From positions 28,343-92,342 of the forward strand of contig JBCCHV010000019.1 in the NCBI GenBank assembly GCA_039028635.1: a stretch of DNA of 64,000 nucleotides, given 5' to 3'. Positions 173 through 14,766 of this stretch are shown piece by piece. The position numbers and the translations under genes are program-made. The number at the start of each line of letters is the position of its first letter. Within the stretch, counting starts at the first letter, position 1. The stretch comes from Acidobacteriota bacterium (GTDB lineage: Bacteria; Acidobacteriota; Thermoanaerobaculia; Multivoradales; JBCCEF01). The notes beneath the pieces are model-generated. The model searched no databases and was not told the origin of the DNA. It saw only the letters and a program-made list of their open reading frames with translations.

Positions 173-973
173 CTAGCCGTAGCGCCCTTCGATGTAGTCG
201 GCGGTCTCCTGCTCTCGCGGGGTGACGAACATCTCTTCGGTGGCGGTGTGCTCGACCACTTTGCCGAGGAGCATGAAGATGCACTCTTCGCTGGCCCGCC
301 GCGCCTGCGCCATGTTGTGGGTGACGATCAGGATGGTGTAGTCACCCTTGAGATCCCAGAGCAGCTCCTCGACGGCTTCGGTGCCGGCGGGATCGAGGGC
401 CGAGCAGGGCTCGTCCATCAACAGCACCGTCGGCTTGTTGGGCAGCAAGCGGGCGATGCAGAGCTTCTGCTGCTCCTCGAGGGAGAGCGCCGTCGCTTCG
501 CTCCGCAAGCGATCCTTGACCTTGTCCCACAGCAGTACCTGGCGGAGGGCACCCTCGACGATCTCGTCCTCCTGAGATCGACTGAGCTTCTCCCCCTTCT
601 CGATAGCCAGGCGACTGCCGAACAGAACGTTGTCGCGGATCGACAGGGGCAGCGGATTGGGGCGCTGGAACACCATCCCCACCTGCCGCCGCACTTGGAC
701 TTTTTCAACCGTCGGATCGTAGATGTCGTGGCCGAGCACGTGGATGCTGCCGGTGGTTCGCACGTAGCCGAGGCGCTCGTTGATGCGGTTGACGCTGCGC
801 AGAAAGGTCGACTTGCCGCAGCCGGACGGCCCGATCAGCGACGTGATGGCCCCGGCCCGGATGTCGAGGTCGACATCGAAGAGAGCCTGGAAGGTGCCGT
901 ACCAGAGGTTGAGGTCACGGGTCCGAATGGCGAGCTCGGCAGCGTCCTGCGGGGTGGTTTCGGAATCAGCCAA
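173..973 (-). CDS. pstB: Phosphate ABC transporter ATP-binding protein PstB (distal of two tandem copies)
   Basis: 266 aa; Walker A GPSGCGKST, ABC signature and PstB-family N-terminus (LNLWYG...); its start overlaps the upstream pstB stop. Confidence 0.9.
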   Translation of the reverse strand: MADSETTPQDAAELAIRTRDLNLWYGTFQALFDVDLDIRAGAITSLIGPSGCGKSTFLRSVNRINERLGYVRTTGSIHVLGHDIYDPTVEKVQVRRQVGMVFQRPNPLPLSIRDNVLFGSRLAIEKGEKLSRSQEDEIVEGALRQVLLWDKVKDRLRSEATALSLEEQQKLCIARLLPNKPTVLLMDEPCSALDPAGTEAVEELLWDLKGDYTILIVTHNMAQARRASEECIFMLLGKVVEHTATEEMFVTPREQETADYIEGRYG

Positions 974-1751
974 AGCGCCCCTCCAGGTAGTCGCGGGTGC
1001 GGGTGTCCTCGACCTCGCCTTCGAACAGGGCCTCGGTCTCCCCCACCTCCACCAGCTCGCCGGTGAGGAAGAACGCGGTGCGATCGGCGAGGCGGCGGGC
1101 CTGCTGCACCAGATTGGTCACCAGCACGATGGTGATCTCGCTCTTGAGCTCCTTGAGGACATCTTCGATGCGCATGGTGGTCACCGGATCGACGGCGATC
1201 GAAAACTCGTCGAGGAGCAGCAGCTCGGGGTCCTGGGACAGGGCCCGGGCAATGGTCAAGCGCTGCTGCTGGCCGCCGGAGAGCAAACTGCCGAGGGAGT
1301 CGAGACGGTCCTTGACCTCATCCCACAGAGCGGCTCGGTGCAAACAGCGTTCCACCACCACGTCGAGATCCGCCTTGGCGCGCACGCCGGCCAGCCGCGG
1401 CGCCAGGGAGACGTTGTCGTAGATGGTCATCGGCAGCCCCACCGGCAGCGGAAACACCACCCCGATGCGGCTGCGCAGGGCATAGACGTTGCGCCAGCGG
1501 CGAATGTCCCGGCCGTTGAAGCGAATCGAGCCGTCGACCCGCATGCCAGCGGTGAACAGGTCCATGCGGTTGAGGGCGCGCAGGAACGAGGTCTTGCCGC
1601 TGTTGGCCGGCCCGACGACGCCGAAGATCTCGTTCTCGCGGATCTCCAGGTCGACCCCGCCGAGGGCGAGGTGCGAGCCGTAGCGAATCGACAGCCCTTC
1701 GACCTCGACCTTGGGCCGGTCCGGCGCCGCCTCGGAAGCCACCGCTACCAC
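966..1751 (-). CDS. pstB: Phosphate ABC transporter ATP-binding protein PstB paralog (proximal copy, variant Walker A GPANSGKTS)
   Basis: 261 aa with full ABC ATPase motifs (LSGGQQQR, D-loop) and PstB-like length; start overlaps pstA stop. Confidence 0.85.
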   Translation of the reverse strand: MVAVASEAAPDRPKVEVEGLSIRYGSHLALGGVDLEIRENEIFGVVGPANSGKTSFLRALNRMDLFTAGMRVDGSIRFNGRDIRRWRNVYALRSRIGVVFPLPVGLPMTIYDNVSLAPRLAGVRAKADLDVVVERCLHRAALWDEVKDRLDSLGSLLSGGQQQRLTIARALSQDPELLLLDEFSIAVDPVTTMRIEDVLKELKSEITIVLVTNLVQQARRLADRTAFFLTGELVEVGETEALFEGEVEDTRTRDYLEGRFG

Positions 1752-2614
1752 TTCTTCTTCCCCCGCAGGTAGGTGCGGAAGGCGATCGACAGAGCGTTCA
1801 TGGCGAGCACCATGCCGATCAAAACCAGGGCGACGCCGAAGGGCAGCCGCTCCGGCACCCCGGGCACCTGGGTCGAGATGACGAACAAGTGGAGCGACAT
1901 CGCCATGGTCTGGTCGAAGACGCTCTGCGGCAAGAAGGGCAAGAAGAAGGCCGCGCCGGTGAACATGATTGGCGCGGTCTCACCGGTGGTGCGCGAGACC
2001 TCCAGGATGACGCCGGTCAGGATGCCGCTGATCGAGTTCGGCAGCACCACGTGGCGGATCGTCTGCCAGCGCGTCGCGCCCATATTCCAGCAGGCCTCGC
2101 GAAAGGCCTGCGGCACCGCCTGCATCGACTCCCGGGCCGACACGATCACCACTGGCAGAGTCATCACCGCCAACGTCAGGCTGGCCGCCAAGATGCTGGT
2201 TCCGAAGCGGAAGAAGAGCACGAAGGCACCGACGCCGAAGAGGGCGTGAACGATCGACGGCACGCCGGCGAGGTTGATGATCGCCAGGTTGATGGAGCGG
2301 GTCAGCCAGTTGTCCGGGGCGTACTCGCTGAGGTAGAGGGCGGCCGCCACGCCGATCGGCACCGAGGCCAGCAGCGCCACCGCCACCAGCCAGACGGTCC
2401 CCACCAGGGCCGGGAAGATTCCGCCGGCGGTCATGCCATCCTTGGGCTCCGTGAAAAGGAAGTCGATCGACAGCACCGGACCGCCTTCCCACAGCAAGAC
2501 CCCGAGGATGATGATCACCGGCAGGATCAGCACCACCGTCATCCACAGGAAGAGGAGCTTGTAGAGGCGCTCGATCTTCTGATTTCTTTGGTCGAGATGG
2601 GTTGCCGCGAACAT
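1745..2614 (-). CDS. pstA: Phosphate ABC transporter permease PstA
   Basis: 289 aa polytopic membrane protein with the PstA-family EAA-loop region; sits between pstC and pstB. Confidence 0.9.
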   Translation of the reverse strand: MFAATHLDQRNQKIERLYKLLFLWMTVVLILPVIIILGVLLWEGGPVLSIDFLFTEPKDGMTAGGIFPALVGTVWLVAVALLASVPIGVAAALYLSEYAPDNWLTRSINLAIINLAGVPSIVHALFGVGAFVLFFRFGTSILAASLTLAVMTLPVVIVSARESMQAVPQAFREACWNMGATRWQTIRHVVLPNSISGILTGVILEVSRTTGETAPIMFTGAAFFLPFLPQSVFDQTMAMSLHLFVISTQVPGVPERLPFGVALVLIGMVLAMNALSIAFRTYLRGKKKW

Positions 2615-2620
2615 GGCGCG

Positions 2621-3523
2621 CTACCTCTTGCGGATACCGCGGACCACGAGGTCGGCGGTCAGGTTGATGACGAAGGTGACGATGAAGAGCAGGATGCCGA
2701 GGGTAAAGAGAGCGCCGTAGTGATCCGATCCGACGGCCGTTTCGCCGAGCTCGGCGGCGATGGTGGCGGTCAGCGCGCGCACCGAGTCGAAGACGCTGGT
2801 CGGCAAATTCACCGAATGGCCGCTCGCCATCAACACCGCCATGGTCTCGCCGAAGCCTCGCCCCACGCCGAGCAGCACCGCCGCCACCAGGCCGTTCTTG
2901 GCCGCCGGCAGCACCACCCGGGAAATCACCTGCCAGCGCGTCGCGCCGAGCGCTTCGGCGGCCTCGCGATAGCTCTCCGGCACCGCTTTGAGGGCGTCCT
3001 CGGCGATGGTGGTCATGATCGGCGCCGCCATCAGGCCCAGGATCACGCCGGAGTTGAGGATGTTGAGGCCCACCGGCACATTGAACAGATCGATGATCAG
3101 GGGGTTCATGATGCTCAGACCGATGAAGCCCCAGACCACCGACGGAATCGCCGCCAGCATCTCCACCAGAACCTTGAGAATCTCGCGCCGCCGGCCGGTG
3201 GCGAACTCACCGATATAGATCGCCGCCCCGAGGGAGAACGGCACCGCCACCAGCATCGCCAGACCGGTGACGCTGGCGGTGCCAGCGATCAGTGCCAAGG
3301 CGCCGTAGGTCGGGTTGTGATCCGAGGTCGGGCGCCAGCGCGGCGAGGTCAGCAGCTCGCCGACATCGAGGGTCGAGAGAATGAACGGCAGCCCCTCCTT
3401 GGCGATGAAGGCGAAGATGCCGAGAATGAAGAGAACCGCCGAGATGCCGCCGAGGAAGACCAGCACCTGGACTCCCTTGTCGACATACCAGGCCGCCGTG
3501 CGACGATCTTCCGCCCGTTCCAC
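2621..3523 (-). CDS. pstC: Phosphate ABC transporter permease PstC
   Basis: 300 aa permease with PstC-like TM pattern and EAA motif (RYREAAEALGATRWQ). Confidence 0.9.
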   Translation of the reverse strand: MERAEDRRTAAWYVDKGVQVLVFLGGISAVLFILGIFAFIAKEGLPFILSTLDVGELLTSPRWRPTSDHNPTYGALALIAGTASVTGLAMLVAVPFSLGAAIYIGEFATGRRREILKVLVEMLAAIPSVVWGFIGLSIMNPLIIDLFNVPVGLNILNSGVILGLMAAPIMTTIAEDALKAVPESYREAAEALGATRWQVISRVVLPAAKNGLVAAVLLGVGRGFGETMAVLMASGHSVNLPTSVFDSVRALTATIAAELGETAVGSDHYGALFTLGILLFIVTFVINLTADLVVRGIRKR

Positions 3524-3525
3524 GG

Positions 3526-4614
3526 TCAGAGGTTCTCCGCCCCGCGCAGGCGCTCCATCAGCTCGCGCAATCGATGGGCCAGATCGCGATAGCAGTTCTC
3601 GAGGCGCGGCGCCGCGCGTTCCGGATCGAGGTCGCCGAGATCGAGGGCGACGTCCCAGGACAGCAGCACGGTGCGGAAGGGCACCTGCAGATGCCCTCGG
3701 CCGTCACCGGAGAGATCGACGATCACGTGGTAGGCCTCCAGCTCGTCGCCCTGCGGCTCGAGGGCTTTGGGCTCGAGAGCGGCGAGGTCGAAGCCGCGAC
3801 GGGAAAGAAAGGCGGCGACGCGCGAATCGGCGGCCGTCGCCGGCGCCCAGCCGGCAGAGGCGAACTCCCCGGAATCGGCGAAGGAGTCGCGGGCCAGGGC
3901 CTCGGCGATCAGGCTGGCGCCATCGTTGGCGGCCTCGACGAAGAGCACCCGAAAGTGCTTCGGGGCCTTGGTTTCGCCGGTGACGATGAAGATCGTCTCC
4001 TCGCAGAGGTTCTTGGCCTGGTCACTGACCCGCTCGAGGCCCTTGAGGGCGGCCTGCAGGGCCAGCAGGTCCTGCAGCTCCTGTTGCCCCTTTTCGCCGG
4101 CCTGCAGCAGGTCGGAAAGCACTTTGCGGTAGAGGGCATCGGACTGCCGCGCCATCGGCAGGGTGCCGCGGGCGAGGTCGCTGTTGCCCTCGCGGAAGGC
4201 GGCGATGGCCTGGCGCAGCATCGCCCGGCTCTGCTGTGCCAGCAGCTCGACGTCGTCGGCGAGGAGCTCCGGCAGCGGCGCCGAGATGCGCACCGCTTCG
4301 CGCGAGATGGTCACGGCGTAGTCGCCGATCCGCTCGAGCTCGAGGTTCAGGCGCAGCACCGAGGAAACGAAGCGCAGGTGACCGGCGCTGGGCAGGTGCA
4401 GGGCGACGAAGGAGTGGCAGCGCCGATCGATCTCGCGGCTGGCGCGGTTGATCGCGTGATCCCCGAGAATGGTCTCCCCGGCGAGCTCGAAATCGCGCCG
4501 CACCAGGGCCTGGACGGCATCGCCGAGGGCCGCCTCGACGGCCTCCCCCATCGCTCCGACGCGTGCCCGAATGTCCTCCAGGTCGGCCTCGAGGCGTTGT
4601 TCCAAATGACTCAT
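3526..4614 (-). CDS. phoU: PhoU-family phosphate signalling protein fused to a C-terminal degenerate LMW-PTP/ArsC-like domain
   Basis: Residues 1-215 carry two PhoU repeats (ELERIGDYAVTI and GLERVSDQAKNL). Residues ~225-362 have the LMW-phosphatase fold signature (VLFVEAANDGASLIAEA aligns to the V-C-x-G-N-x-C-R-S P-loop, but Cys and Arg are replaced; the downstream DLDP Asp-Pro loop is retained). Sits between pstS and pstC. Confidence 0.8.
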   Translation of the reverse strand: MSHLEQRLEADLEDIRARVGAMGEAVEAALGDAVQALVRRDFELAGETILGDHAINRASREIDRRCHSFVALHLPSAGHLRFVSSVLRLNLELERIGDYAVTISREAVRISAPLPELLADDVELLAQQSRAMLRQAIAAFREGNSDLARGTLPMARQSDALYRKVLSDLLQAGEKGQQELQDLLALQAALKGLERVSDQAKNLCEETIFIVTGETKAPKHFRVLFVEAANDGASLIAEALARDSFADSGEFASAGWAPATAADSRVAAFLSRRGFDLAALEPKALEPQGDELEAYHVIVDLSGDGRGHLQVPFRTVLLSWDVALDLGDLDPERAAPRLENCYRDLAHRLRELMERLRGAENL

Positions 4615-4728
4615 GTCAACCTTCTTCCTTTGACTTCCCGACGGCAGCGCCGGAGGACCAGCGGAGAGGTGGTCTCGGAGCCCGGTCGGTGAGCAGCGAA
4701 CAGCGCCGGGGCGAGCCCCGGCAGAGAT

Positions 4729-5643
4729 CTAGACGCAGTCGACCTCGACCGCCGGGGCGTAGCCCTTCTCGGCGATGATGCACTGACCGGTCGGGCTCAG
4801 AATCCAGTCCAGATAAGCCTTGACGGCGCCCTCCGGCTCGCCGGAGGTATACATGAAGAGCGGTCGCGCGATCGGGTAGGAGCGATCGACGGCGGTCTCG
4901 ACGGATGGTGAGACGCACCCGGATCCGGCCTCCTCACCTTCTTCTCCCTCCGCCGACTCGCCGGTGACGATGCACGCCATCTTGACGCCATGGGTGGCGT
5001 AGGCCAGGCCGGAGTAGCCGATCGCGCAGGGGGTCTTCTCGACCAGGTCGACGACGTCCTTCGAGCCGTGCATGTCGCGGGTGCCGAGACGGTAATCGCG
5101 CTCCTTACCGAGTACCGTGTCTTTGAAGTAGACGTAGGTGCCAGAGTTGTTCTGGCGGCTGACGATGACGATCTCGTCGCTGTCGCAACCCGGCACCTCG
5201 ACGCCGAGCTGGCTCCAGGACTCGACCGTCGCCCCCTCGCCGTAGATGTCGGCGAGCTGCTCGAGGCTCATCGTGTCGATCGGATTGTCGGCGTGCAGAT
5301 AGACCGCCAGCGCGTCATAACCGACGATGTGCTGCTTCGGTTCGACGCCGTTGGCGCGCGCCGACTCGAGCTCCCGATCCTTCATCGCGCGGCTCGAGCT
5401 GGCGATGTCGACGGTGCCATTGATCATCGCCGAGATACCGGTTCCGGAGCCACCGCCGGTAACCGCCACGGCGACGTTCGGAGCCACCTCTTTGTAGTTC
5501 TCGGCCCACGCCTGGGCGACGTTGACCAGGGTGTCCGAGCCCTTGTTCTGAATGATCGTGCGGCCCGCCCGGCTGCCGTCCTCGGCAGGCCGTCCACAAG
5601 CGGCGAGCAACAGAATTGCGCATACAGCGGCCAGGTGTCTCAT
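4729..5643 (-). CDS. pstS: Phosphate-binding periplasmic protein PstS (lipoprotein)
   Basis: PstS/PBP-family sequence; signal peptide with lipobox LLAAC. Start chosen at MRHL (GGAGG 7 nt upstream) rather than the ORF-track Met 6 codons earlier. Confidence 0.85.
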   Translation of the reverse strand: MRHLAAVCAILLLAACGRPAEDGSRAGRTIIQNKGSDTLVNVAQAWAENYKEVAPNVAVAVTGGGSGTGISAMINGTVDIASSSRAMKDRELESARANGVEPKQHIVGYDALAVYLHADNPIDTMSLEQLADIYGEGATVESWSQLGVEVPGCDSDEIVIVSRQNNSGTYVYFKDTVLGKERDYRLGTRDMHGSKDVVDLVEKTPCAIGYSGLAYATHGVKMACIVTGESAEGEEGEEAGSGCVSPSVETAVDRSYPIARPLFMYTSGEPEGAVKAYLDWILSPTGQCIIAEKGYAPAVEVDCV

Positions 5644-5697
5644 AGAGACCTCCAGGTTCATGATTCCAGATTAGAGAAAGGCTCAGAAGGCCAAAAA

Positions 5698-8124
5698 TCA
5701 AACCAAATCGAAGAGTCGCCCCAACAGCATCTGAAGCGGAAACCGCTGAAGACTACCACCCACGGCGGCGTGCTCGTCATAGACCTGCACGGCGTCCGCC
5801 TCGATGCCTTCTCCCCAGATCAGAACCGGCAGCGGATCGGCGGCGTGCTGACCGCTTTCGGAGAGGGTGGCGTGGTCCGAAGCGACCGCCACCCGGAGCG
5901 GCCCGGAGGTGCTCTCGAGCAGCTCACCGAGGGCTCCGTCGACGCGCTCGAGGAACTCCACCTTGAGATCCGGCCGGCGATCGTGGGCCGCGATGTCGGC
6001 CCCCTTGACGTGCACGACCACCAGGTCGCCGCGGCGCAGATGATCGGCCGCGAAATTCAGCTTGGTCGCCAGGTCGGTGTCGAGATTAGCGGTCATCGCC
6101 GGCGTCGAAACGATCTCGGCGCCGAGCCAACGCGCCAGGCCGAGCACCGTGCGATCGCCGGAGATGCAGGCCAGGCGTAGTGGATCTCCGCCGGACTCGA
6201 GAGGGATCAAGCGGTGGGGCCGGCCGGCACCGCGGGTCAGTACGGCATTGGCCATCGGCTGACCGGCCCCGTGGCGGCGGCGGTTCACCGGATGGTCGGC
6301 CAGCAGGCGACGCGCCTCTTCCTCGAAAAGCGCCAGAATCCGCGCTGTGTAGACCGCCCGCGGATCGTCCGGATCGGTCGATTGCGGCGTCAACGGACGC
6401 TGCCCGAGGGCCCCATCGCCGGGATCGCTGCCGCCGATGGCCGACGACAGTCCCTCGCCCCGGAGGACCACCGCCAGGCGATGCTCCGTCGCGGCCTTGA
6501 CCCGCACCTCGGCCTCGTCCGCCAGGCTGCCCGGCAGGGGCAAGCGGTCGAGCACGGCGGCGAGCTCTTCCGTATCGAGGCGAATGCGTCCGGCGCGGCG
6601 GTCGATCACTCGCCCGTCGGCGTCGAGGGTGGCGAAGTTGCCGCGCAGGGCGACATCGCCGGCGGAGAGCTCGACGCCGGCCCCGAGGGCTTCCACGGGA
6701 CCACGCTTGAGGGCCAGCGGAGACTGTCCGAAAAGGGCCAGGCTGCCGGCCGCCGTGTCCGGGACCACTCCCGGAGAGATGGGGTCGGCGAGGCCGCAGC
6801 GACCTTCCCGGGCGAGGCGATCGAGGGTTGGCGTCTCGGCCGCCTGCAGCGGTGTCCGCCCGCCGAGGGAGCGCACCGGCCGATCCGCCATGCCGTCGAT
6901 GATCAGCAGCAGGGTCGGCCCCTTGACGCTCTCCGGCTCGACCTCTTCCTGGGCCAAGGCGGGCAGCCGGCGTTCGAGCAGACCGGTGATCAGGCGCAGG
7001 CTCTCGGCCACCGGCAGCTCACCTCGGGAGGTGTCGAGGAGTGGCACGTCGTGCAGCTCCGCCTGCTGCAAGACGTGGTCGTGAATCGCCCGGATGGCGC
7101 CGAAGCTCTCGACGTAGCGTTCCGCCCGGCGCCCGCCGAGACGAGCGCGAGAGAGAAAGCGCGGTCGATGGGCCTCGGCATCGAGGGTGCCGAGGATCAA
7201 GGGAACTTGATACACCGCGCCCTCGAGGTCGCCGAAAGGAATCAGTGGCGGATAGAGATGAACCCCTTCCACCAGGACGCTGAGGTTTTCAGCGATGGCG
7301 CGTTCCACCACCGCCCGCACGCCGACGGCGACGCGCGTCGCCTGCTCCTCGAAGGAGGCCAGCAGGCGCTCTCCCCCTTCGAGACCGTCCGTCGCCGCGA
7401 CGCCGTCGGCGGTCTCGAAGCTGGATGTATGGAGCGCCGGCAGGATGGCCGAAGAGAAGACCATCCGCATCACCTGGCGAATGGTGTCGGTGGCGGTGAC
7501 GCGGTAGATGCGCAGCAGCGGCGCGAGCTCGAGGGCGAGGGTCGACTTGCCCGTCCCGCTGGCCCCCCCGAGGTAGATCACCAGCGGTCGCGGCAAGCGC
7601 GAGATCCGCCGCACCAGGCGGTAGCGACGGGCCGCGTCGGGCCCTTCGAAGCGCTCGAGGAGGGCGCCCATGCGGCGGGCGATCTCGGCGCTCGGCAACA
7701 CCTCGACGCCCTCCGCCCGCAGCTCACCGCGCAGCTCGACGACCAGCCGATAGGCGCGATCGAGGTCGACGCCGGCAGCGAGCACGCTGCGCGCCAATAA
7801 GCCACGAGAAAAGGGCTGCTTCTCGCCGTGGTAGACAACGAACAGGTCCGGCGCCGGCCGCGCCGGCAGGACCGCTTCGCCGGCCAGACCCTCGAGATGG
7901 AGGTCGACGAGGTCGCGAATCTCCGCCGTCGTCACCTCGTCGCGATCACCGAAGTGATCCCGAATCGCCCGCGCCGAGGCGTAGGCGCTGTCGAAGTCGA
8001 GACCGCGCTGCATCAAATCGTGGGTCACCATGCCGCGCAAGAATCGCTGTCGATTACCGCGCGAGGTCACCACCGTCAAGGCGCGGCGTCGGCCGCGCTC
8101 ACCACTGCTGCTCTGGCGACTCAA
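5698..8124 (-). CDS. Fusion protein: 2-phosphoglycerate kinase (ATP-cone + P-loop kinase) :: archaeal-type cofactor-independent phosphoglycerate mutase (ApgM-like)
   Basis: N-terminal half has the 2PGK signature (YLGGASGTGKSTLALELA...RVTATDTIRQVMR...LHTSSF). C-terminal half opens with the ApgM hallmark (LLLIIDGMADRP...TPL..A.TP.LD.LA..G..GL.DP). Its ATG overlaps the sixA-like stop (ATGA). Confidence 0.8.
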   Translation of the reverse strand: MSRQSSSGERGRRRALTVVTSRGNRQRFLRGMVTHDLMQRGLDFDSAYASARAIRDHFGDRDEVTTAEIRDLVDLHLEGLAGEAVLPARPAPDLFVVYHGEKQPFSRGLLARSVLAAGVDLDRAYRLVVELRGELRAEGVEVLPSAEIARRMGALLERFEGPDAARRYRLVRRISRLPRPLVIYLGGASGTGKSTLALELAPLLRIYRVTATDTIRQVMRMVFSSAILPALHTSSFETADGVAATDGLEGGERLLASFEEQATRVAVGVRAVVERAIAENLSVLVEGVHLYPPLIPFGDLEGAVYQVPLILGTLDAEAHRPRFLSRARLGGRRAERYVESFGAIRAIHDHVLQQAELHDVPLLDTSRGELPVAESLRLITGLLERRLPALAQEEVEPESVKGPTLLLIIDGMADRPVRSLGGRTPLQAAETPTLDRLAREGRCGLADPISPGVVPDTAAGSLALFGQSPLALKRGPVEALGAGVELSAGDVALRGNFATLDADGRVIDRRAGRIRLDTEELAAVLDRLPLPGSLADEAEVRVKAATEHRLAVVLRGEGLSSAIGGSDPGDGALGQRPLTPQSTDPDDPRAVYTARILALFEEEARRLLADHPVNRRRHGAGQPMANAVLTRGAGRPHRLIPLESGGDPLRLACISGDRTVLGLARWLGAEIVSTPAMTANLDTDLATKLNFAADHLRRGDLVVVHVKGADIAAHDRRPDLKVEFLERVDGALGELLESTSGPLRVAVASDHATLSESGQHAADPLPVLIWGEGIEADAVQVYDEHAAVGGSLQRFPLQMLLGRLFDLV

Positions 8125-8639
8125 GGTGCCTCCTCCCAGCGCTGCAGGATTTTCGGGGTCACCAGCCAGCGCAGCTCACCGCGGCCGGCCGCCGGCTCAG
8201 CCCAGCTCTCGAGGGGTAAATCGATGCGCGCCAAGGCCGCCGTCGGGAAACGAAAGTCGCCGCCGCCGACCAGGCGGCGCAGCAGCTCCGAGAAGGTCGG
8301 CTGGTGACCGACCAGCAGAACCCGGCGCAGGGAGTCATCGAATCCCGGCAGCCAATGCTCCAACAGGCCCTCGACGGACTCGGAGTAGATCTCTTCGGCC
8401 ACCGCCACGGGGCGATTCCAAGCCCCCGCCGAGGCCGCCAGCTCGAGGGTCCGCCGGGCCCGCTCGGCCGGCGACGCGATGGCGAGATCGGGCAACGGCC
8501 CGGCCGCGGCGAGAAACCGTCCGATGGTGAGGGCTGCCCGCCGCCCCCGAGGATTGAGCGGACGCTGCCGGTCGTCGTCGTGCTGCACCGTCCAGTCGGA
8601 CTTACCGTGGCGGAGCAGGAGTAGGGTTCGTCGCGTCAC
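8121..8639 (-). CDS. Histidine-phosphatase-superfamily protein (SixA / phosphoglycerate-mutase-like)
   Basis: 172 aa; RHG motif (LLLLRHGKSDW) and a conserved His further down (LLVGHQPTFSE); SixA-like size. Confidence 0.75.
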   Translation of the reverse strand: MTRRTLLLLRHGKSDWTVQHDDDRQRPLNPRGRRAALTIGRFLAAAGPLPDLAIASPAERARRTLELAASAGAWNRPVAVAEEIYSESVEGLLEHWLPGFDDSLRRVLLVGHQPTFSELLRRLVGGGDFRFPTAALARIDLPLESWAEPAAGRGELRWLVTPKILQRWEEAP

Positions 8640-8785
8640 CAGTCATCCGAGTCCTATGCAAGGCGGCAACTCGCCGGCCGTGGGTCTGAATCGCCTACAA
8701 TTTGACAGGCTTCCCAAGGCAGAGCAACCGCCGCTGCTGCAACACCGCTGTCACAGCCCTCTGCTAGCTTCCGAAAGGCGCCCGA

Positions 8786-10969
8786 GTGGTCAAGAAAACC
8801 AAGAAAGCCAAAGCTTTGAAGAGCACTGCCACCTCACTGGAGAGCAGCCCCCCGGAACAGCCGGAAGCCGTCGACGCGGAATCCCCCTCGCAGTATCTCA
8901 ACCGCGAGCTGAGCTGGCTGCGCTTCAACGAGCGCGTCCTCGAAGAAGCCCTGGACACCCGCCATCCGCTGCTCGAGCGGGTCAAGTTTCTAGCGATCTT
9001 TTCGAGCAACCTCGACGAGTTCTTCATGATCCGCGTCTCGGGCCTGCGCCGCCAGCTCGCTGTCGGCGCCCTCGAGCCACCGCCCGACGGCATGACGCCG
9101 GCGGAGCAGCTCGCCGCCATTCGCGAAGCGCTCACCCCGCTGATCGAGAGCCGCGCCCGCTGCTGGAACGACGACCTGCTTCCCAAACTGCGCCACCGCG
9201 GCATCCGGGTGCTGCGCTATGACGATCTCAAGAGCAAGCAGCGCAAGCTCCTGCGGCGCCACTTCCGCAGCGAGATCTTCCCCACCCTGACGCCCCTCGC
9301 CTTCGACCCGTCGCACCCCTTCCCGCACATCTCGAACCTGAGCATCAATCTGGCGGTGGTGATCAACGACCCCGGCCACGGCGACCGCTTCGCCCGCCTC
9401 AAGGTGCCCAACAGCCTGCCACGGCTGCTGCGCATTCCGAGCGAGGACAAGGCCGGCAGCTACCAGCGTCTCGGCCTCGAGCTGCCCCAGGCGACCCATT
9501 TCGTGTGGATCGAGGAGGTCATCGCCGCCAACCTCGACCTGCTCTTCCCGGAGCTCGAGGTGGACGCCGCCTATCCCTTCCGGGTGACCCGCGACGCCGA
9601 CCTCGAGATCGAGGAGGACGAGGCCTCGGACCTGCTGTCGGCGATGCAGGAGGTGGTCGGCCTGCGCCACTTCGGCTCGGTGGTGCGACTGGAGGTCGAC
9701 GAGCGCATGCCGGAGCGCATTCGCGAGATCCTCACCCGCAACCTCGAGCTCGCCCCCTACCAGGTCTATGAAGCCGAAGCGCCGCTCGGCATGTCCGACC
9801 TCTTCGAGCTCACCAAGGTCGAACGACCGGAGCTCAAGGACCCGCCGTTCCTGCCTTTGGTGCCGCCGGAGCTGAGCGGCGAAGAGAGCCTGTTCGCCGC
9901 CATTCGGCGCCGCGACGTTTTGCTCTATCACCCCTACGACAGCTTCACGCCGGTAGTCGACTTCGTGCGCCAGGCGGCCGAGGACCCGGACGTCCTGGCG
10001 ATCAAGCAGACCCTTTATCGGGTGGGCCCCAACTCTCCCATCGTCGAGGCTCTGATGGAGGCGCGCGAGAACGGCAAGCAGGTGTCCGCCCTGGTCGAGC
10101 TCAAAGCCCGCTTCGACGAGGCCAACAACATCGTCTGGGCGCGCGCTCTGGAGCGTGCCGGGGTGCACGTGGTCTACGGCCTCCTCGGCCTCAAGACGCA
10201 CGCCAAGATGTGCCTGGTGGTGCGCAAGGAGCACGAGGGAATCCGTCGCTATGTCCACCTCGGCACGGGCAACTACAACCCGGAGACGGCGCGCATCTAC
10301 ACCGACCTGGGCTTCTTCACCGCCGACGAGGAGATCGCCTCCGACGTCTCCGACCTGTTCAATGCCCTCACCGGCTACTCGCGCAAGGATCGCTACCACA
10401 AGCTGCTGGTGTCCCCCCACTCGATGCGCCAGCAGCTCCTCGACCGCATCCAGCGGGAGATCGACCTGCATCGCGAGAGCGGCGATGGCCACATCGCCTT
10501 CAAGATGAACTCGCTGGTCGATCGCGCCTGCATTCGCGCCCTCTACGAAGCCTCCCAGGCAGGCGTCCGGATCGACCTCCAGGTGCGCGGCATCTGCTGC
10601 CTGCGGCCCGGCGTGCCGGGCCTCTCCGAGAACATCACCGTGACCTCCATCGTCGGTCGCTTCCTCGAGCACGCCCGGATCTACTACTTCCACAACGGCG
10701 GCGCCGAAGAGATCTATCTCGGTAGCGCCGACCTCATGCCGCGCAACCTCGACGGGCGCGTCGAAGTGCTCTTCCCGGTGAGCGATCCCGCCCTGCGCGA
10801 TCCGCTACGGGACGAGATCCTCTTCCTCCACCTGCGCGACAACCAACAGGCCCGCCTGCTCGAAGCCTCCGGCACCTACCAGCGGCTGACGCCCGGAAAG
10901 CGCCGTCACGGCGACGACACCCAGAGCATCCGCCTCGCCGAGCGCGGCTCCTGGCACCTCGAAGACTAG
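8786..10969 (+). CDS. ppk: Polyphosphate kinase 1
   Basis: 727 aa; PPK1 N-terminus (YLNRELSWLRFNERVLEEA) and C-terminal PLD-like HKN motifs; divergent from the pst operon. Confidence 0.9.
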   Translation: MVKKTKKAKALKSTATSLESSPPEQPEAVDAESPSQYLNRELSWLRFNERVLEEALDTRHPLLERVKFLAIFSSNLDEFFMIRVSGLRRQLAVGALEPPPDGMTPAEQLAAIREALTPLIESRARCWNDDLLPKLRHRGIRVLRYDDLKSKQRKLLRRHFRSEIFPTLTPLAFDPSHPFPHISNLSINLAVVINDPGHGDRFARLKVPNSLPRLLRIPSEDKAGSYQRLGLELPQATHFVWIEEVIAANLDLLFPELEVDAAYPFRVTRDADLEIEEDEASDLLSAMQEVVGLRHFGSVVRLEVDERMPERIREILTRNLELAPYQVYEAEAPLGMSDLFELTKVERPELKDPPFLPLVPPELSGEESLFAAIRRRDVLLYHPYDSFTPVVDFVRQAAEDPDVLAIKQTLYRVGPNSPIVEALMEARENGKQVSALVELKARFDEANNIVWARALERAGVHVVYGLLGLKTHAKMCLVVRKEHEGIRRYVHLGTGNYNPETARIYTDLGFFTADEEIASDVSDLFNALTGYSRKDRYHKLLVSPHSMRQQLLDRIQREIDLHRESGDGHIAFKMNSLVDRACIRALYEASQAGVRIDLQVRGICCLRPGVPGLSENITVTSIVGRFLEHARIYYFHNGGAEEIYLGSADLMPRNLDGRVEVLFPVSDPALRDPLRDEILFLHLRDNQQARLLEASGTYQRLTPGKRRHGDDTQSIRLAERGSWHLED

Positions 10970-11005: not shown

Positions 11006-13546
11006 TCACGGGCAGGTGCCAGGGGTCGCCGAGAAGGTGTTGGTGACCGCAGTCCCGGGCCCCAGGGCGGTAGCCGGCGACACCATGTGGACCCCCGCCC
11101 CATCGATCTCCAGTCCCGGACCGAGGGTGATCGAGTTGCTTGCGGTGAAGGTCGCGGCAGCGCTCAGGGTGGTGTTGGCGATCACCGCGTTTGCCGGGCA
11201 GCCGCCAAAGTCCAGAAGCCAGGCGCCTCGCCCCAGGGTTCCCGCCAGCAGCACATCGTCGGCGGGATCGTAGTCGAGCTCGTAGACCGGGGCGTTCGGC
11301 AAGCTGATTCCCAGCGGCGTCCAGGTCGAGAAGCCCGCGCCCTCGCTGGCGGCGTAGACGCCGGTGTCGGTGCCCACCACCAGCAGGTCGCCGCCGGGAC
11401 CGTTGACGTACTCGGCGAAGTTGATATTTCCGGCGTTGTTGCCCGGAGCGGTGAACAGATCGCCGGTGACGGCGCTCCAGGTGGATCCGGCATTGTTGGT
11501 GCGGAAGACGTTGGCGACGTCGACGGCAAAGGCCACCGTGTCGCTGTCCGGATCGAGCACCACCGCGGTGATGCCACGGAAGTCGGCCGTCAGGGTGGTG
11601 CAGGAGACGGCGGCGCCCGGCGCACCGATGCGCTGGCAGACCTGCGTGGCGGTTCCAAAGTAAAGCAGCTCCGCATTGCCCGGCCGACCGTAGGCAATCG
11701 GGCTTCCGCCAGTGAACGAGGTGATCCTGGCGGTCGAGATGCGGTTGATGGTGTCGAGGCGGGTCAGGCTCTCGTAGACGCCGTTGGCACCCCCCGCGAT
11801 CAGCCGAGTGGGGTCCAGCGCATTCACCGCCAACGGGGTCTTGAACTGCGGCGCGATCGCCGGCGAGCCGCCGATCGGCGTCAGGGTCGGCTCCATCGCC
11901 GTCACCAGGACGTTGGCGGCATCATAGATGCGGCGGGTCAGGGATTGCAGGTTCTGGGCGCTGGCGTAGCGGGTCGACTGGCTCGCCAGGGGATCGCCGG
12001 GCGCCACCACCACGTCTCCCCCGTCCCCTCCCCGCACCGTGGCCCACACCGAGCTCGCCGGCAGCAGTTGCTCACCGCTGCCGTTGTCCTGGTTGCCGGA
12101 GATGATGATGTTACTGAGCGAGTCGTAGGCGCTGTCGTGCTGCTCGATGGCCGCCAGGTTGCCGACCACCGACTGCCAGTCGCCAGCGCCACCGAGGGGA
12201 TCCGTGTGGCGATAGACACCGCCGTCGTCGACCTCGATCAGGTCACCGTTGGCGTCGAACACCATCTCCCGCGAGTCGGCGTGGGGAGCGCTGTCCGATG
12301 CGGTGCTCGCCTGACCGCCACAGGCCGCCGGCAGAGGCGGTGCGCAATGGGTGATCGGGCGCGCCTGGCTGCCCGGCGCCAGATCCGCGTCGACCCTGAA
12401 CAGACGACCGACGAAGCCGCTGGCGCCGATCGAGTTCGGGAAGGCATTGCCTTGGAGCGCCTCGTTGGCGGCAGGCTGACGGTCGCCGCCGACATAGACC
12501 ACCGAGTGGTCCAGCGGATCGGCGACCAGCGAGAGATGGGGGTTGCACTGCCCCCCCGGGTGAACTCCATAGACGGCGCCGAACAGCTCGGTAGTCTGCG
12601 GCAGGTCGAGGCTGGACCAGTTCGTCCCGCCATCGGGCGAGTGGAACAGTCCCGACAGGCGGCCGCTGGCGCAGGTCGCCACGAAGAGGTTTCCACCACC
12701 GCGGCCGGCCACCACCTGCACCACCGCCGGCGTGGCTTCTAGCGCCATGTCCATCACCGAGCCGGCGCCGACCTGGGTCCAGGTCGCCCCGGTATCGCTG
12801 CTGCGGTAGAGACCGTCCTCCGCCAGGCCGAGGCCGGTCGAAGGGACGTACAGTCGCGTACTCAGGGTGGGATCCTGGGCCAGGTCGAAGGCGAAGCCGC
12901 ACGGCAGCCCCGCGGCGCTGAGGCCGCCGAAGAGGTTGTGAGACAGCCGGATGAAGGTACTCCCCGAATCGGTACTGCGAAAGATCCCCAGAGACGAGCA
13001 GCTCGAGAACGGTCCCCGGACCGCCGCCACCAGAGTCGAGCCCCGGGGGGCCACCCCCCGCAGGTCGAGTCCGACGAGATTTGCCGACGGCAGGAGAGTC
13101 CAGGAGACCCCACCGTCGGTGGTCCTCATCACCCCCTCCAGCGCGCCGCCGATGCCACCGTAGGCACTGGTGTGGCCGATCCCCGCCACCAGTGTCTGAT
13201 GGCTGCCGTCGGTGGGATCGAGCTCCAGGGCGGCGATCGAGAGGGACCGCAGGTGGTCCGTCTGGGCGGTCCAGATCGGAATCGAAGCGGTGGCATCGAG
13301 GGTGCGGAAGACGCCTCCGTTGACTGATCCGACCCACAAGATGTCGGGATTCGTGGGATGCGCCACCACCGCCTCGAGGGCGCCCGCCACCGGTCCGGCG
13401 GAAATGTTCTCCACCGAGCCGAGAAGGAGCGGCGCCGGGCCCTTGGCCTCCCAGACCAGCTGTCCTTGAGCCTCCACACTAAAGGCGGCTGCGAAGCAGA
13501 GGATCGCGACGACGATCCGGTGGTGATTGCGAGCGGTATTTTTCAT
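11006..13546 (-). CDS. Secreted BNR/Asp-box repeat protein (sialidase/glycosidase-like beta-propeller)
   Basis: Multiple S-x-D-x-G-x-T-W boxes (STDSGSTF, SSDTGATW, SPDGGTNW, TTDGGVSW, TNNAGSTW). True start at MKNTARN... (GGAGGGAG RBS, signal peptide); the ORF-track N-terminal extension to 13855 is rejected. Confidence 0.75.
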   Translation of the reverse strand: MKNTARNHHRIVVAILCFAAAFSVEAQGQLVWEAKGPAPLLLGSVENISAGPVAGALEAVVAHPTNPDILWVGSVNGGVFRTLDATASIPIWTAQTDHLRSLSIAALELDPTDGSHQTLVAGIGHTSAYGGIGGALEGVMRTTDGGVSWTLLPSANLVGLDLRGVAPRGSTLVAAVRGPFSSCSSLGIFRSTDSGSTFIRLSHNLFGGLSAAGLPCGFAFDLAQDPTLSTRLYVPSTGLGLAEDGLYRSSDTGATWTQVGAGSVMDMALEATPAVVQVVAGRGGGNLFVATCASGRLSGLFHSPDGGTNWSSLDLPQTTELFGAVYGVHPGGQCNPHLSLVADPLDHSVVYVGGDRQPAANEALQGNAFPNSIGASGFVGRLFRVDADLAPGSQARPITHCAPPLPAACGGQASTASDSAPHADSREMVFDANGDLIEVDDGGVYRHTDPLGGAGDWQSVVGNLAAIEQHDSAYDSLSNIIISGNQDNGSGEQLLPASSVWATVRGGDGGDVVVAPGDPLASQSTRYASAQNLQSLTRRIYDAANVLVTAMEPTLTPIGGSPAIAPQFKTPLAVNALDPTRLIAGGANGVYESLTRLDTINRISTARITSFTGGSPIAYGRPGNAELLYFGTATQVCQRIGAPGAAVSCTTLTADFRGITAVVLDPDSDTVAFAVDVANVFRTNNAGSTWSAVTGDLFTAPGNNAGNINFAEYVNGPGGDLLVVGTDTGVYAASEGAGFSTWTPLGISLPNAPVYELDYDPADDVLLAGTLGRGAWLLDFGGCPANAVIANTTLSAAATFTASNSITLGPGLEIDGAGVHMVSPATALGPGTAVTNTFSATPGTCP

Positions 13547-13611
13547 TCTCCCTCCAGCGCCAGTTTCTCGATGCGAGTTTCTGCAGCTCCGACCAGGACC
13601 GCTGGGAGCGC

Positions 13612-14766
13612 TCATGGCGGCATCGGTCCACGCAGCTGCGTGGACCGGAGGGTCCGTTCCCACACCGAGCTGCCGCTGCCGAGGACGATCGCGTGCAGGC
13701 GCCGTGGCGATTCCTCCCACTCTTCTCCCGAGCGGCGACCGAAGGGCCGCTCGATCAGGACGACATGATCGTCGTCGACGAAGAATGGGGAATGCGCCTG
13801 GCGGTGCCGTAGGCGCCCCACCGACTCTCCGGTTTCGAGGGACAACAGCGACCACTCGTACTCCTCCGCCTCCCCCCGGGCGTGCCGCTGGGTAACCAGC
13901 AGATGGCGGCCGTCCGCCGAGGGAAATTGCAGCAAGTGGGGGCCGCGAAAGAGCTCGTGATCCGGCAGCGGCTCGCCGCCGGATCGCTGCCAGCGCTTGA
14001 GGATGATCCTGCTGTCCGGCGCGGTCTGGCCGCCGACCACCTCGGTTGCCGCGATCACCACTCCCGCCGCCACCGGCCCCACGGCGGAGCGACCAGCGGC
14101 ACGCCAGGCTTCAACCGAGGGCGGCCAGGCCGGCGCCGGCGGAGCGTTCTCGACGGCGACCAGCTCACCGGCCTGTCGATCCCACTGCAGGGCGCCGCGG
14201 CGGAGCGTCTCCGGCGGTGCGCCGGCGCCCGGCGCGACCCCTTGGGCGTAGCGTTCGGTCTGAGTCCAGACGAGCTCGAGCTTCCCCGTAGAGCGCCGGC
14301 TGGTGAGCTCGAAACGACGACCGATCGCCTCGTCCAGGGTCGCCCGCACCCCCGCCGGCAGGGTCACCGAGAACGACTCCTCGAGCCGGCCGGCGGCCGC
14401 ATCGAGCAAGACGACATGCAAGCGCGACAGGGCGCCCGGACGAATCACTTGAGCCACCAGCCGGTCGCCGTCGAGCGCTACCGGCTGGTCCGCCTCGTCA
14501 CTGGTCCAGAGGACACTGCCGGACGCCAGCGAGATCTTTTCCAGTCCGCCCTCCGGGCGCATGGCGTAGAGCGCCCCGTCCGCCGGATCCACCACCACAC
14601 CGAGGGTGAGCTCGAAGGCCTCCTGAGTGGCCGCAGAGCTCCACGCCAAGGCCCATCCGACGACGACGAGCGTCACCCTCCGGCGCCACCGACCGGCCCG
14701 GCGAGCCACCGGCGCGCCGGCGCGCTCCCCTGGCCCCTGCGGGGCCGCCCCTGAGCGGCGCCTCAC
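13612..14766 (-). CDS. Secreted hypothetical protein, possible PQQ/BamB-like beta-propeller repeats; Tat-like RRR signal
   Basis: 384 aa; N-terminal WRRRVTLVVVGWALAWSSAA signal; repeated 'G.LYA...G...W' segments; its ATG overlaps the upstream gene stop (ATGA). Confidence 0.55.
   Translation of the reverse strand: MRRRSGAAPQGPGERAGAPVARRAGRWRRRVTLVVVGWALAWSSAATQEAFELTLGVVVDPADGALYAMRPEGGLEKISLASGSVLWTSDEADQPVALDGDRLVAQVIRPGALSRLHVVLLDAAAGRLEESFSVTLPAGVRATLDEAIGRRFELTSRRSTGKLELVWTQTERYAQGVAPGAGAPPETLRRGALQWDRQAGELVAVENAPPAPAWPPSVEAWRAAGRSAVGPVAAGVVIAATEVVGGQTAPDSRIILKRWQRSGGEPLPDHELFRGPHLLQFPSADGRHLLVTQRHARGEAEEYEWSLLSLETGESVGRLRHRQAHSPFFVDDDHVVLIERPFGRRSGEEWEESPRRLHAIVLGSGSSVWERTLRSTQLRGPMPP

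Follow-up and report, generated by a model that had tools for sequence, protein, structure and literature searches.

This work concerns one gene in a 64,000-nt stretch of an Acidobacteriota genome (contig JBCCHV010000019.1, positions 28,343 to 92,342; hereafter the window). It encodes an 808-aa fusion of a 2-phosphoglycerate kinase (2PGK)-family domain with a domain resembling ApgM, the archaeal-type cofactor-independent phosphoglycerate mutase (iPGM). The fusion is conserved, it recurs beside genes for inorganic phosphate (Pi) uptake and polyphosphate (polyP) metabolism, and it very probably has a functional link to Pi and polyP homeostasis. The product is the same in length and sequence as P0001, a protein called by NCBI in an Acidobacteriota metagenome-assembled genome (MAG). 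Because the gene has a G+C content of 0.83 at third codon positions (GC3) and at least 468 clusters of homologues, it is not a chance open reading frame (ORF).

From the features described below we infer the following mechanism, which we hold tentatively, at slightly less than an even chance. The protein would be a cytoplasmic bifunctional enzyme of the phosphate/polyP gene network of this Thermoanaerobaculia-like bacterium, leading from 3-phosphoglycerate (3PG) through 2-phosphoglycerate (2PG) to 2,3-bisphosphoglycerate (2,3-BPG). The metal-dependent ApgM-like domain would interconvert 3PG and 2PG, the fused kinase would convert 2PG and ATP to 2,3-BPG, and two N-terminal ATP-cone-like domains would gate activity by the adenylate state. 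Expression of the gene would start, jointly with that of a neighbouring SixA-like gene and the pst operon, in a divergent promoter region that also serves ppk1 and is probably controlled by PhoB. The product would be an organophosphate buffer or, more plausibly, a metabolite signal by which Pi uptake and polyP turnover respond to the glycolytic and energy state.

Conservation of the fusion and its genomic context

A search of 5.8 billion proteins returned homologues of the fusion in at least 468 clusters at 90% identity, mostly from Thermoanaerobaculia. The best 120 of these clusters were all about 820 aa long, with the identical domain set and 65-72% identity, and the named proteins among them came from Acidobacteriota or Thermoanaerobaculia MAGs and were annotated as iPGM. 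When the N-terminal half was scanned, profile-free, against 1.84 billion cluster representatives, 1523 family members were recovered (225 at E <=1e-30), including proteins of about 800 aa at 30-40% identity in which Pfam found kinase-ApgM fusions as well. The fusion is conserved across these clusters and distant proteins, and its two modules also occur as split adjacent gene pairs.

The split pairs deserve closer description. In a SAR324 MAG the kinase and ApgM are separate genes 9 nt apart. Among 80 metagenome loci seeded with stand-alone kinases, an ApgM gene lay 28-289 nt downstream of the kinase in 15 and was fused to it in one; no ApgM was found nearby in 42 of the 57 stand-alone loci whose downstream sequence was long enough, and the Marinithermus kinase has no adjacent ApgM gene. 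The genomes of Thermus and Deinococcus are reported to include both COG2074 and COG3635 (PMC1274311). As kinase and ApgM are fused or adjacent in distant lineages, they offer Rosetta-stone evidence of joint action in those lineages, and the fact that the expected product of the ApgM domain is the expected substrate of the kinase domain supports linked activities by the same logic. The coupling holds for these lineages, not family-wide.

The genomic context was sampled in 80 species-representative fusion loci, in which Pi and polyP genes were mapped by tblastn. Spurious antisense ORFs spoiled neighbour clustering in the high-GC metagenome loci, and the real neighbours were resolved by GC3 and Pfam. 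Pi/polyP genes occur in the flank of 38 of the 80 loci, that is, 38 of 63 once the monophyletic block of Candidatus Multivorans (Ca. Multivorans) is set aside; among loci outside this block with at least 5 kb on both sides, 22 of 32 have them. Gene order varies between loci. One arrangement has ppk1 divergent from a SixA-like-fusion pair, often following ppx, a sodium-phosphate cotransporter (NaPi)-PhoU pair, CHAD, two PPK2 genes and pstCABB. Elsewhere the fusion stands directly 3' of pstS-phoU-pstCABB, directly before pstS (the window and L041), directly 3' of a NaPi-PhoU pair, or divergent from pstS (L042). These arrangements are backed by Pfam-annotated neighbourhoods, and at least six architectures were found overall, with non-orthologous transporters included.

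Distant relatives show similar surroundings. The distant fusion P0162 is flanked by ppx and by PHO4/PiT with PhoU_div, P0159 and P0165 are tail-to-tail with OprO/P-pstS-phoU-pstCABB, and 49 nt separate P0123 from the preceding PhoU, with a PhoB-like regulator close by. A split kinase/ApgM pair adjoins PhoU-pstC-pstA (L155), and a fused one is accompanied by CHAD, Ppx and pstS (L109). Since the arrangements differ from one another, they point to repeated recruitment and not to a single inherited accident. A gene for a Ppx-GppA protein of about 300 aa ends 40-50 nt before the kinase in seven stand-alone loci. The conserved operon in these loci (L124 5058-9535, L122, L129, L132, L138, L140 and L162) consists of Ppx-GppA, a kinase with two ATP-cones, an M48 peptidase and a MoxR-like AAA ATPase; its last gene is likely a vWA protein, an assignment not confirmed by Pfam.

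Several loci weigh against a phosphate-related role. None of the 17 Ca. Multivorans loci has a Pi/polyP context, and their gene order is a housekeeping one: nqrE-nqrF-apbE, the fusion, spoU, birA, valS. Most stand-alone kinase homologues have neither ApgM nor a phosphate gene nearby. Further counter-examples are a marine SAR324-like clade, the distant fusion P0195 (L092 1747-5063), which is divergent to bacterial microcompartment shell proteins, EutN/CcmL and an aldehyde dehydrogenase, and the loci L003 and L021. In these last two, a conserved 188-aa protein (L003 9419-9985) that has no match in Pfam or NCBIfam is encoded ahead of the fusion at a distance of 16 nt, the position held elsewhere by the SixA-like gene. 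One MAG (CBDAMQ01) carries two fusion paralogues (L045 and L051), 81% identical, of which one follows pstS-phoU-pstCABB and the other has no phosphate neighbours. The expectation that relatives would keep the fusion beside phosphate genes was therefore borne out in 38 of the 80 loci and in distant lineages, and failed in Ca. Multivorans and in most stand-alone homologues.

An alternative is that the protein is an ordinary glycolytic phosphoglycerate mutase, possibly the sole one in these genomes, with an ATP-sensing or regulatory kinase-like appendage, its phosphate position reflecting loose co-regulation and no dedicated route. NCBI and JGI indeed annotate the fusion as iPGM, and the housekeeping neighbourhood of Ca. 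Multivorans and the single phosphate-linked member of the paralogue pair point the same way. As a general explanation we consider it improbable. The catalytic motifs of the kinase are invariant, as would not be expected of a degenerate regulatory domain; the phosphate context appears in at least six independent architectures, non-orthologous transporters among them; and in L032 and L042 the fusion has a Pho-box-like site of its own, 52 nt and 95 nt upstream. Clades like Ca. Multivorans may have a housekeeping mutase; such a reading leaves the invariant kinase motifs and the repeated recruitment to phosphate loci unexplained. A motif scan of the 1.6 Mb of fetched loci, which is uninformative on whole genomes, detected no gpmI, gpmA, eno or pgk.

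Domain composition and the proposed reaction

The initial annotation had described the N-terminal half as a 2PGK module of ATP-cone plus P-loop and the C-terminal half as an ApgM-like mutase. Domain searches on each half with Pfam, NCBIfam, PDB and Foldseek placed them in these two families. Residues 18-381 match the NCBIfam 2PGK models PRK12337 (E 2.6e-76) and PRK04220 (E 2.1e-73), the Pfam ATP-cone match spans residues 100-174, and the motif LLLIIDGMADRP is present in the protein. The first ATP-cone-like domain forms an internal repeat with the second (blastp E 3e-6), and the domain aligned to it in the distant fusion P0210 matches Pfam ATP-cone. In the Ca. Multivorans clade (L067-L084), where the match to the query starts only at about residues 87-96, this first domain is diverged or absent. 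The segments GGASGTGKS, TDTIRQVMR, PALHTSSF and EGVH align with proteins of about 306 aa that JGI names 2-phosphoglycerate kinase, and the underlying family motifs GGxxGxGKS, TDxxRxxMR, PxxHxSSF and EGxH are invariant among 37 relatives. In the full-length AlphaFold2 (AF2) model (pLDDT 80.5), the kinase domain resembles adenylate and UMP-CMP kinases by Foldseek. A sequence search found no solved structure for the kinase half, and a kinase-only AlphaFold model built from an 11-sequence alignment (pLDDT 44) proved unusable. The 2PGK of Methanothermus fervidus (COG2074), first enzyme of cyclic 2,3-diphosphoglycerate (cDPG) synthesis, likewise combines an ATP-cone with a P-loop kinase and has the same family motifs; the window protein differs from it in being bacterial, in having two ATP-cone-like domains and a fused ApgM, and in its place among Pi/polyP genes.

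For the C-terminal half, Pfam gave PhosphMutase (E 2.6e-33) and Metalloenzyme (E 5e-26) on residues 403-792, and residues 405-801 passed the cutoff of NCBIfam apgM TIGR00306 (327 bits, cutoff 320). Sequence searches against PDB entries 3KD8, 3IDD and 2ZKT gave E values of 1e-66 to 1e-68, and the same three structures were the top Foldseek matches (TMt 0.73-0.85). The binuclear-metal ligands typical of the alkaline-phosphatase superfamily (D410, D710/H714, D750/H751 and H760) line up with 3KD8 and do not vary among relatives, and the DRRAGR, EHR and RGNFAT motifs are kept. Compared with the ApgMs of Thermoplasma acidophilum (3KD8/3IDD) and Pyrococcus horikoshii (2ZKT), the window domain thus shares the fold, all metal ligands and 30-34% identity over the structural alignment. 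It differs from them in being fused or coupled to a kinase and in its active-site loops, as described below.

Several of these features speak against assuming the 3PG-2PG-2,3-BPG chemistry. The nucleophile Ser of solved ApgMs is replaced by Thr457 (PDTAAGS in place of GSDT[AS]H), the His following the nucleophile is lost, and a clade-specific MTANLDTDL stands in place of ATGTVGSN. The equivalog cutoff of PRK04024 was not reached (357 bits vs 489), nor were those of the 2PGK models (247.3 bits vs 343 and 257.1 vs 603), which makes the kinase a family-level homologue. The 2PGK family also includes a mevalonate-3-phosphate 5-kinase (PRK12339) and plant LPA1, of uncertain substrate (PMC4844318). 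Moreover, 2,3-BPG synthesis in Pi starvation would use up phosphate and spare none.

The exchange of Ser for Thr, together with the missing His, was found in all kinase-linked ApgM domains examined, namely those of the SAR324 partner and of both close and distant fusions. Within the alkaline-phosphatase superfamily, Thr can serve as a competent nucleophile, as it does in phosphopentomutase and NPP. The Thr nucleophile and the His loss still mark a distinct subfamily, in which mutase activity is not to be assumed. Because of these two changes and the kinase scores below the equivalog cutoffs, the route from 3PG through 2PG to 2,3-BPG is best regarded as plausible, and 2,3-BPG as the product of the fusion is somewhat short of probable.

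The same residues raise the prospect that kinase and ApgM-like domain form a pair acting on another or a broader range of phospho-metabolites: the kinase would make a bisphosphate and the Thr-type domain would remove or transfer the phosphate, giving a self-contained make-and-break switch, comparable to PFK-2/FBPase-2, that would still serve phosphate signalling. The ApgM His is lost, and the D-T-A-A motif is similar to D-S-A in the active site of alkaline phosphatase. Both families hold members with other activities, namely PRK12339 and LPA1 among the kinases and, on the ApgM side, the non-mutases PhpG and a proposed homoserine kinase, whose models score the window protein at 243 and 198 bits (NCBIfam). 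Another 2PGK-like protein, P0265 (854 aa), has its kinase fused to a GlpX-type fructose-1,6-bisphosphatase, a sugar-bisphosphatase, and contains no ApgM. The best family matches of the C-terminal half are nonetheless still apgM (TIGR00306, above cutoff) and PRK04024, its closest folds are ApgMs, and outside the nucleophile loop RGNFAT, DRRAGR and EHR remain as in the solved enzymes. We regard this switch as rather unlikely, though the most serious competitor of the proposed 2,3-BPG route.

It should also be considered whether the locus represents the first half of a methanogen-type cDPG phosphate-storage pathway, as the initial annotation had suggested by naming a cDPG-like route. In methanogens 2PGK feeds cDPG synthetase (cDPGS) (PMC12136491). 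The M. fervidus cDPGS was rebuilt from the supplement of PMC12136491 and is 99% identical to P0289 (Pfam PF27272). When four cDPGS sequences were compared by tblastn with the window and 92 loci (1.61 Mb), the best E value was 0.14, so that no cDPGS gene was detected in the window or at up to 10 kb from any fusion. PF27272 is listed in none of the Pfam-annotated neighbourhoods, and polyP machinery is already present. The cDPG pathway was therefore rejected as a local explanation and appears very improbable.

Locus layout, the SixA-like gene and candidate Pho regulation

The coordinates of the locus are compiled in the table.

Table. Features of the fusion locus, in window coordinates
Feature	Position	Strand	Basis
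Fusion gene: two ATP-cone-like domains, 2PGK-family kinase, ApgM-like domain	5698..8124	-	ORF, Pfam, NCBIfam, homologues
ATP-cone-like domain 1, degenerate, residues 17-81	7882..8076	-	internal repeat, distant-fusion alignment, AF2 secondary structure
ATP-cone domain 2, residues 95-172	7609..7842	-	Pfam PF03477, E 3.4e-7, 31.1 bits vs cutoff 25.8
2PGK-family P-loop kinase domain, residues 176-391	6952..7599	-	NCBIfam PRK12337/PRK04220, shared motifs, adenylate-kinase-like fold
Walker A P-loop GGASGTGKS, residues 186-194	7543..7569	-	motif alignments
ApgM-like metallo-phosphotransferase domain, residues 403-805	5710..6918	-	TIGR00306; PDB 3KD8/3IDD/2ZKT; Foldseek
Thr457 codon at ApgM nucleophile Ser position	6754..6756	-	PDTAAG vs GSDT[AS]H alignment
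SixA-like histidine phosphatase, 172 aa, RHG motif and second His	8121..8639	-	Pfam, NCBIfam
Candidate Pho box GCAACAccgctGTCACA in ppk1/SixA-like intergenic region	8739..8755	+	sole [GT]TAACA-N5-[GT]TAACA match (<=2 mismatches) in the 64-kb window
ppk1 (polyphosphate kinase 1), divergent	8786..10969	+	Pfam, NCBIfam
pstS	4729..5661	-	Pfam, NCBIfam; lipobox; GC hairpin after stop
phoU with C-terminal low-molecular-weight (LMW)-phosphatase/ArsC-like domain	3526..4614	-	Pfam, NCBIfam
pstC, pstA, pstB, second pstB	173..3523	-	Pfam, NCBIfam

ORFs, Pfam and NCBIfam agree that the SixA-like gene and the fusion lie directly upstream of pstS-phoU-pstC-pstA-pstB-pstB in the same direction, with ppk1 divergent. 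Contrary to the initial annotation, the pair is not embedded in the pst operon; it sits upstream of pstS. The stop of the SixA-like gene and the start of the fusion overlap by 4 nt, and GGAGGAGG is located 4 nt upstream of the fusion start. Thus the overlap behind the earlier claim of translational coupling stands, while the junction is TTGA, a TTG start over a TGA stop, and not ATGA. The gap from fusion to pstS is 36-54 nt depending on the pstS start, the likely true one being the ATG at 5643, which is preceded by GGAGG, comes with a lipobox and lies 54 nt past the fusion stop. A scan of 800-9000 detected no terminator-like site between the SixA-like gene, the fusion and the pst genes (hits were at chance level and all intragenic) and no sigma-70-like promoter.

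Pfam confirmed the histidine-phosphatase-superfamily assignment of the neighbouring gene (His_Phos_1, E 8e-11). Among the NCBIfam models sixA (TIGR00249) matches it best, at 48.1 bits against a cutoff of 74.5. The protein is SixA-sized and resembles the phosphohistidine phosphatase SixA in having RHG (residues 10-12) and the second His, here that of GHQP, with a score below the SixA cutoff. It also shows a weak NCBIfam match to the C-terminal region of MutT1, the mycobacterial protein with a histidine-phosphatase domain; ppk1 is a neighbour in both cases. In Mycobacterium tuberculosis, mutT1, carrying this related domain, adjoins ppk1, and PPK1 itself forms a phospho-His intermediate.

Conservation of this neighbour with the fusion was found in part. 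Of the 80 fusion loci 16 have it, and in 14 of these it is accompanied by ppk1. ppk1 itself occurs in 15 loci, 14 of which have the SixA-like gene; in L076 it is still divergent to ppk1 and convergent to the fusion. The remaining 64 loci have the fusion without it, which weakens the proposed partnership. Because the co-occurrence counts follow ppk1, the link of the gene with ppk1 is no weaker than that with the fusion. We therefore downgraded the SixA-like protein as a dedicated 2,3-BPG phosphatase partner: its functional partner is more probably ppk1 than the fusion, and a role in the service of ppk1 is no less likely than 2,3-BPG hydrolysis.

The divergent intergenic region between ppk1 and the SixA-like gene is 146 bp long and contains the candidate Pho box, 100 nt upstream of the SixA-like start. 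TTAACA-like hexamers, arranged as 11-bp-periodic direct repeats, occur upstream of pstS in several relatives. Such repeats are reminiscent of Bacillus PhoP boxes. When [GT]TAACA-N5-[GT]TAACA (<=2 mismatches) was searched in 1.55 Mb of loci, 31 sites were obtained, of which 16 lie within 250 nt upstream of the start of a phosphate gene. Such regions account for 3.45% of the scanned sequence (binomial p 7e-16). The sites mark pstS, NaPi/PhoU and, in a distant lineage, PHO4 and PhoU_div, besides a regulator with PhoB as its best NCBIfam match and the fusions of L032 and L042 mentioned above.

Some properties of the motif argue for caution. The window site has two mismatches, one per half-site, and a single site in 64 kb compares with 1.5 expected by shuffling. 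The signal emerged only after the consensus had been taken from pstS promoters; the consensus thus partly derives from the same promoters, and the related loci are not independent. A strict TTAACA-N5-TTAACA scan gave 13 sites against 22 in shuffles, and with no overall enrichment only the positions of sites are informative. Inspection by eye of the aligned ppk1/SixA-like intergenic regions of relatives revealed no shared motif. The earlier suggestion of Pho regulation accordingly gains from the candidate box and the enrichment upstream of phosphate genes and loses from the mismatches, and we consider Pho-type regulation in the window moderately probable.

Other observations concern the surrounding genes. 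PhoU contains two PhoU domains followed by an LMWPc domain at residues 223-353 (Pfam, 24.8 bits vs cutoff 23.2). PhoU proteins of similar length (about 360 aa) occur in the pst operons of distant-fusion loci, where a PhoU domain only is recorded. The C-terminal domain might handle arsenate entering via Pst or perform a phosphatase step in PhoU signalling. The pst operon closes with tandem pstB ATPase genes (173-973 and 966-1751, minus strand), and a pstB-pstB pair is found in most related loci. A GC-rich hairpin, GCCGGGGCTCGCCCCGGC, lies at about 4709-4726 on the minus strand, shortly 3' of the pstS stop and without a T-run; it could act as an intra-operon attenuator or RNA-stability element setting the ratio of pstS to pstCAB. 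Directly after ppk1, on the opposite strand, a 949-aa protein (11006-13855, minus strand) shows weak Sortilin/BNR-like and F510_1955 glycosylhydrolase-like matches.

Relation to known systems and biological meaning

Full-text literature searches returned no description of the fusion, of the Thr-type ApgM subfamily or of the phosphate-locus link; the matches were methanogen cDPG, plant LPA1 and a 2005 remark on the two archaeal COGs shared by Thermus and Deinococcus (PMC1274311). This agrees with the initial annotation, according to which such a route is not known to have been described in bacteria. The fusion, the subfamily and the association with phosphate loci appear to be undescribed, and both domains are of already known kinds. 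The database name iPGM is incomplete for these fusions.

Two known systems invite comparison. In 6-phosphofructo-2-kinase/fructose-2,6-bisphosphatase (PFK-2/FBPase-2), a domain of P-loop nucleotide-kinase fold is joined to a histidine-phosphatase-superfamily activity. Its kinase makes a bisphosphate effector and is paired with the phosphatase, which offers an analogy only: the SixA-like phosphatase of the window is a separate gene, absent from 64 of 80 loci and tracking ppk1, and a signalling role here would be hypothetical. The plant protein LPA1/OsPGK1 (low phytic acid 1) is a 2PGK-family kinase tied genetically to a phosphorus store, likened here by its description. Overexpression of LPA1/OsPGK1 raises inositol hexakisphosphate (InsP6) and total seed phosphorus (PMC4844318). 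Unlike the window protein, LPA1 is eukaryotic and has no ApgM fusion, and a role as inositol monophosphate (InsP1) kinase has been proposed for it.

Bacterial phosphate sensing and buffering beyond PhoR/PhoB, PhoU and polyP are poorly understood, and the fusion, repeatedly wired into pst, Pit, NaPi, PhoU, ppk and ppx clusters, is an assayable candidate link to lower glycolysis. Thermoanaerobaculaceae are reported to store polyP and glycogen in situ (PMC8100337). Since Thermoanaerobaculia carriers accumulate polyP in wastewater plants, the finding is relevant to biological phosphorus removal. In its widest form, the proposal would be that in several bacterial phyla a PhoB-controlled, ATP-cone-gated 2PGK-ApgM enzyme makes 2,3-BPG, or a related bisphosphorylated acid, as a dedicated intracellular phosphate/energy signal tuning Pi transport and polyP turnover; we put this forward as a long shot. 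If true, such a signal would be to prokaryotes what fructose-2,6-bisphosphate or inositol pyrophosphates are elsewhere. It would also give the 2PGK family its first physiological role in bacteria, and could thereby inform the function of plant LPA1 with a mechanistic clue.

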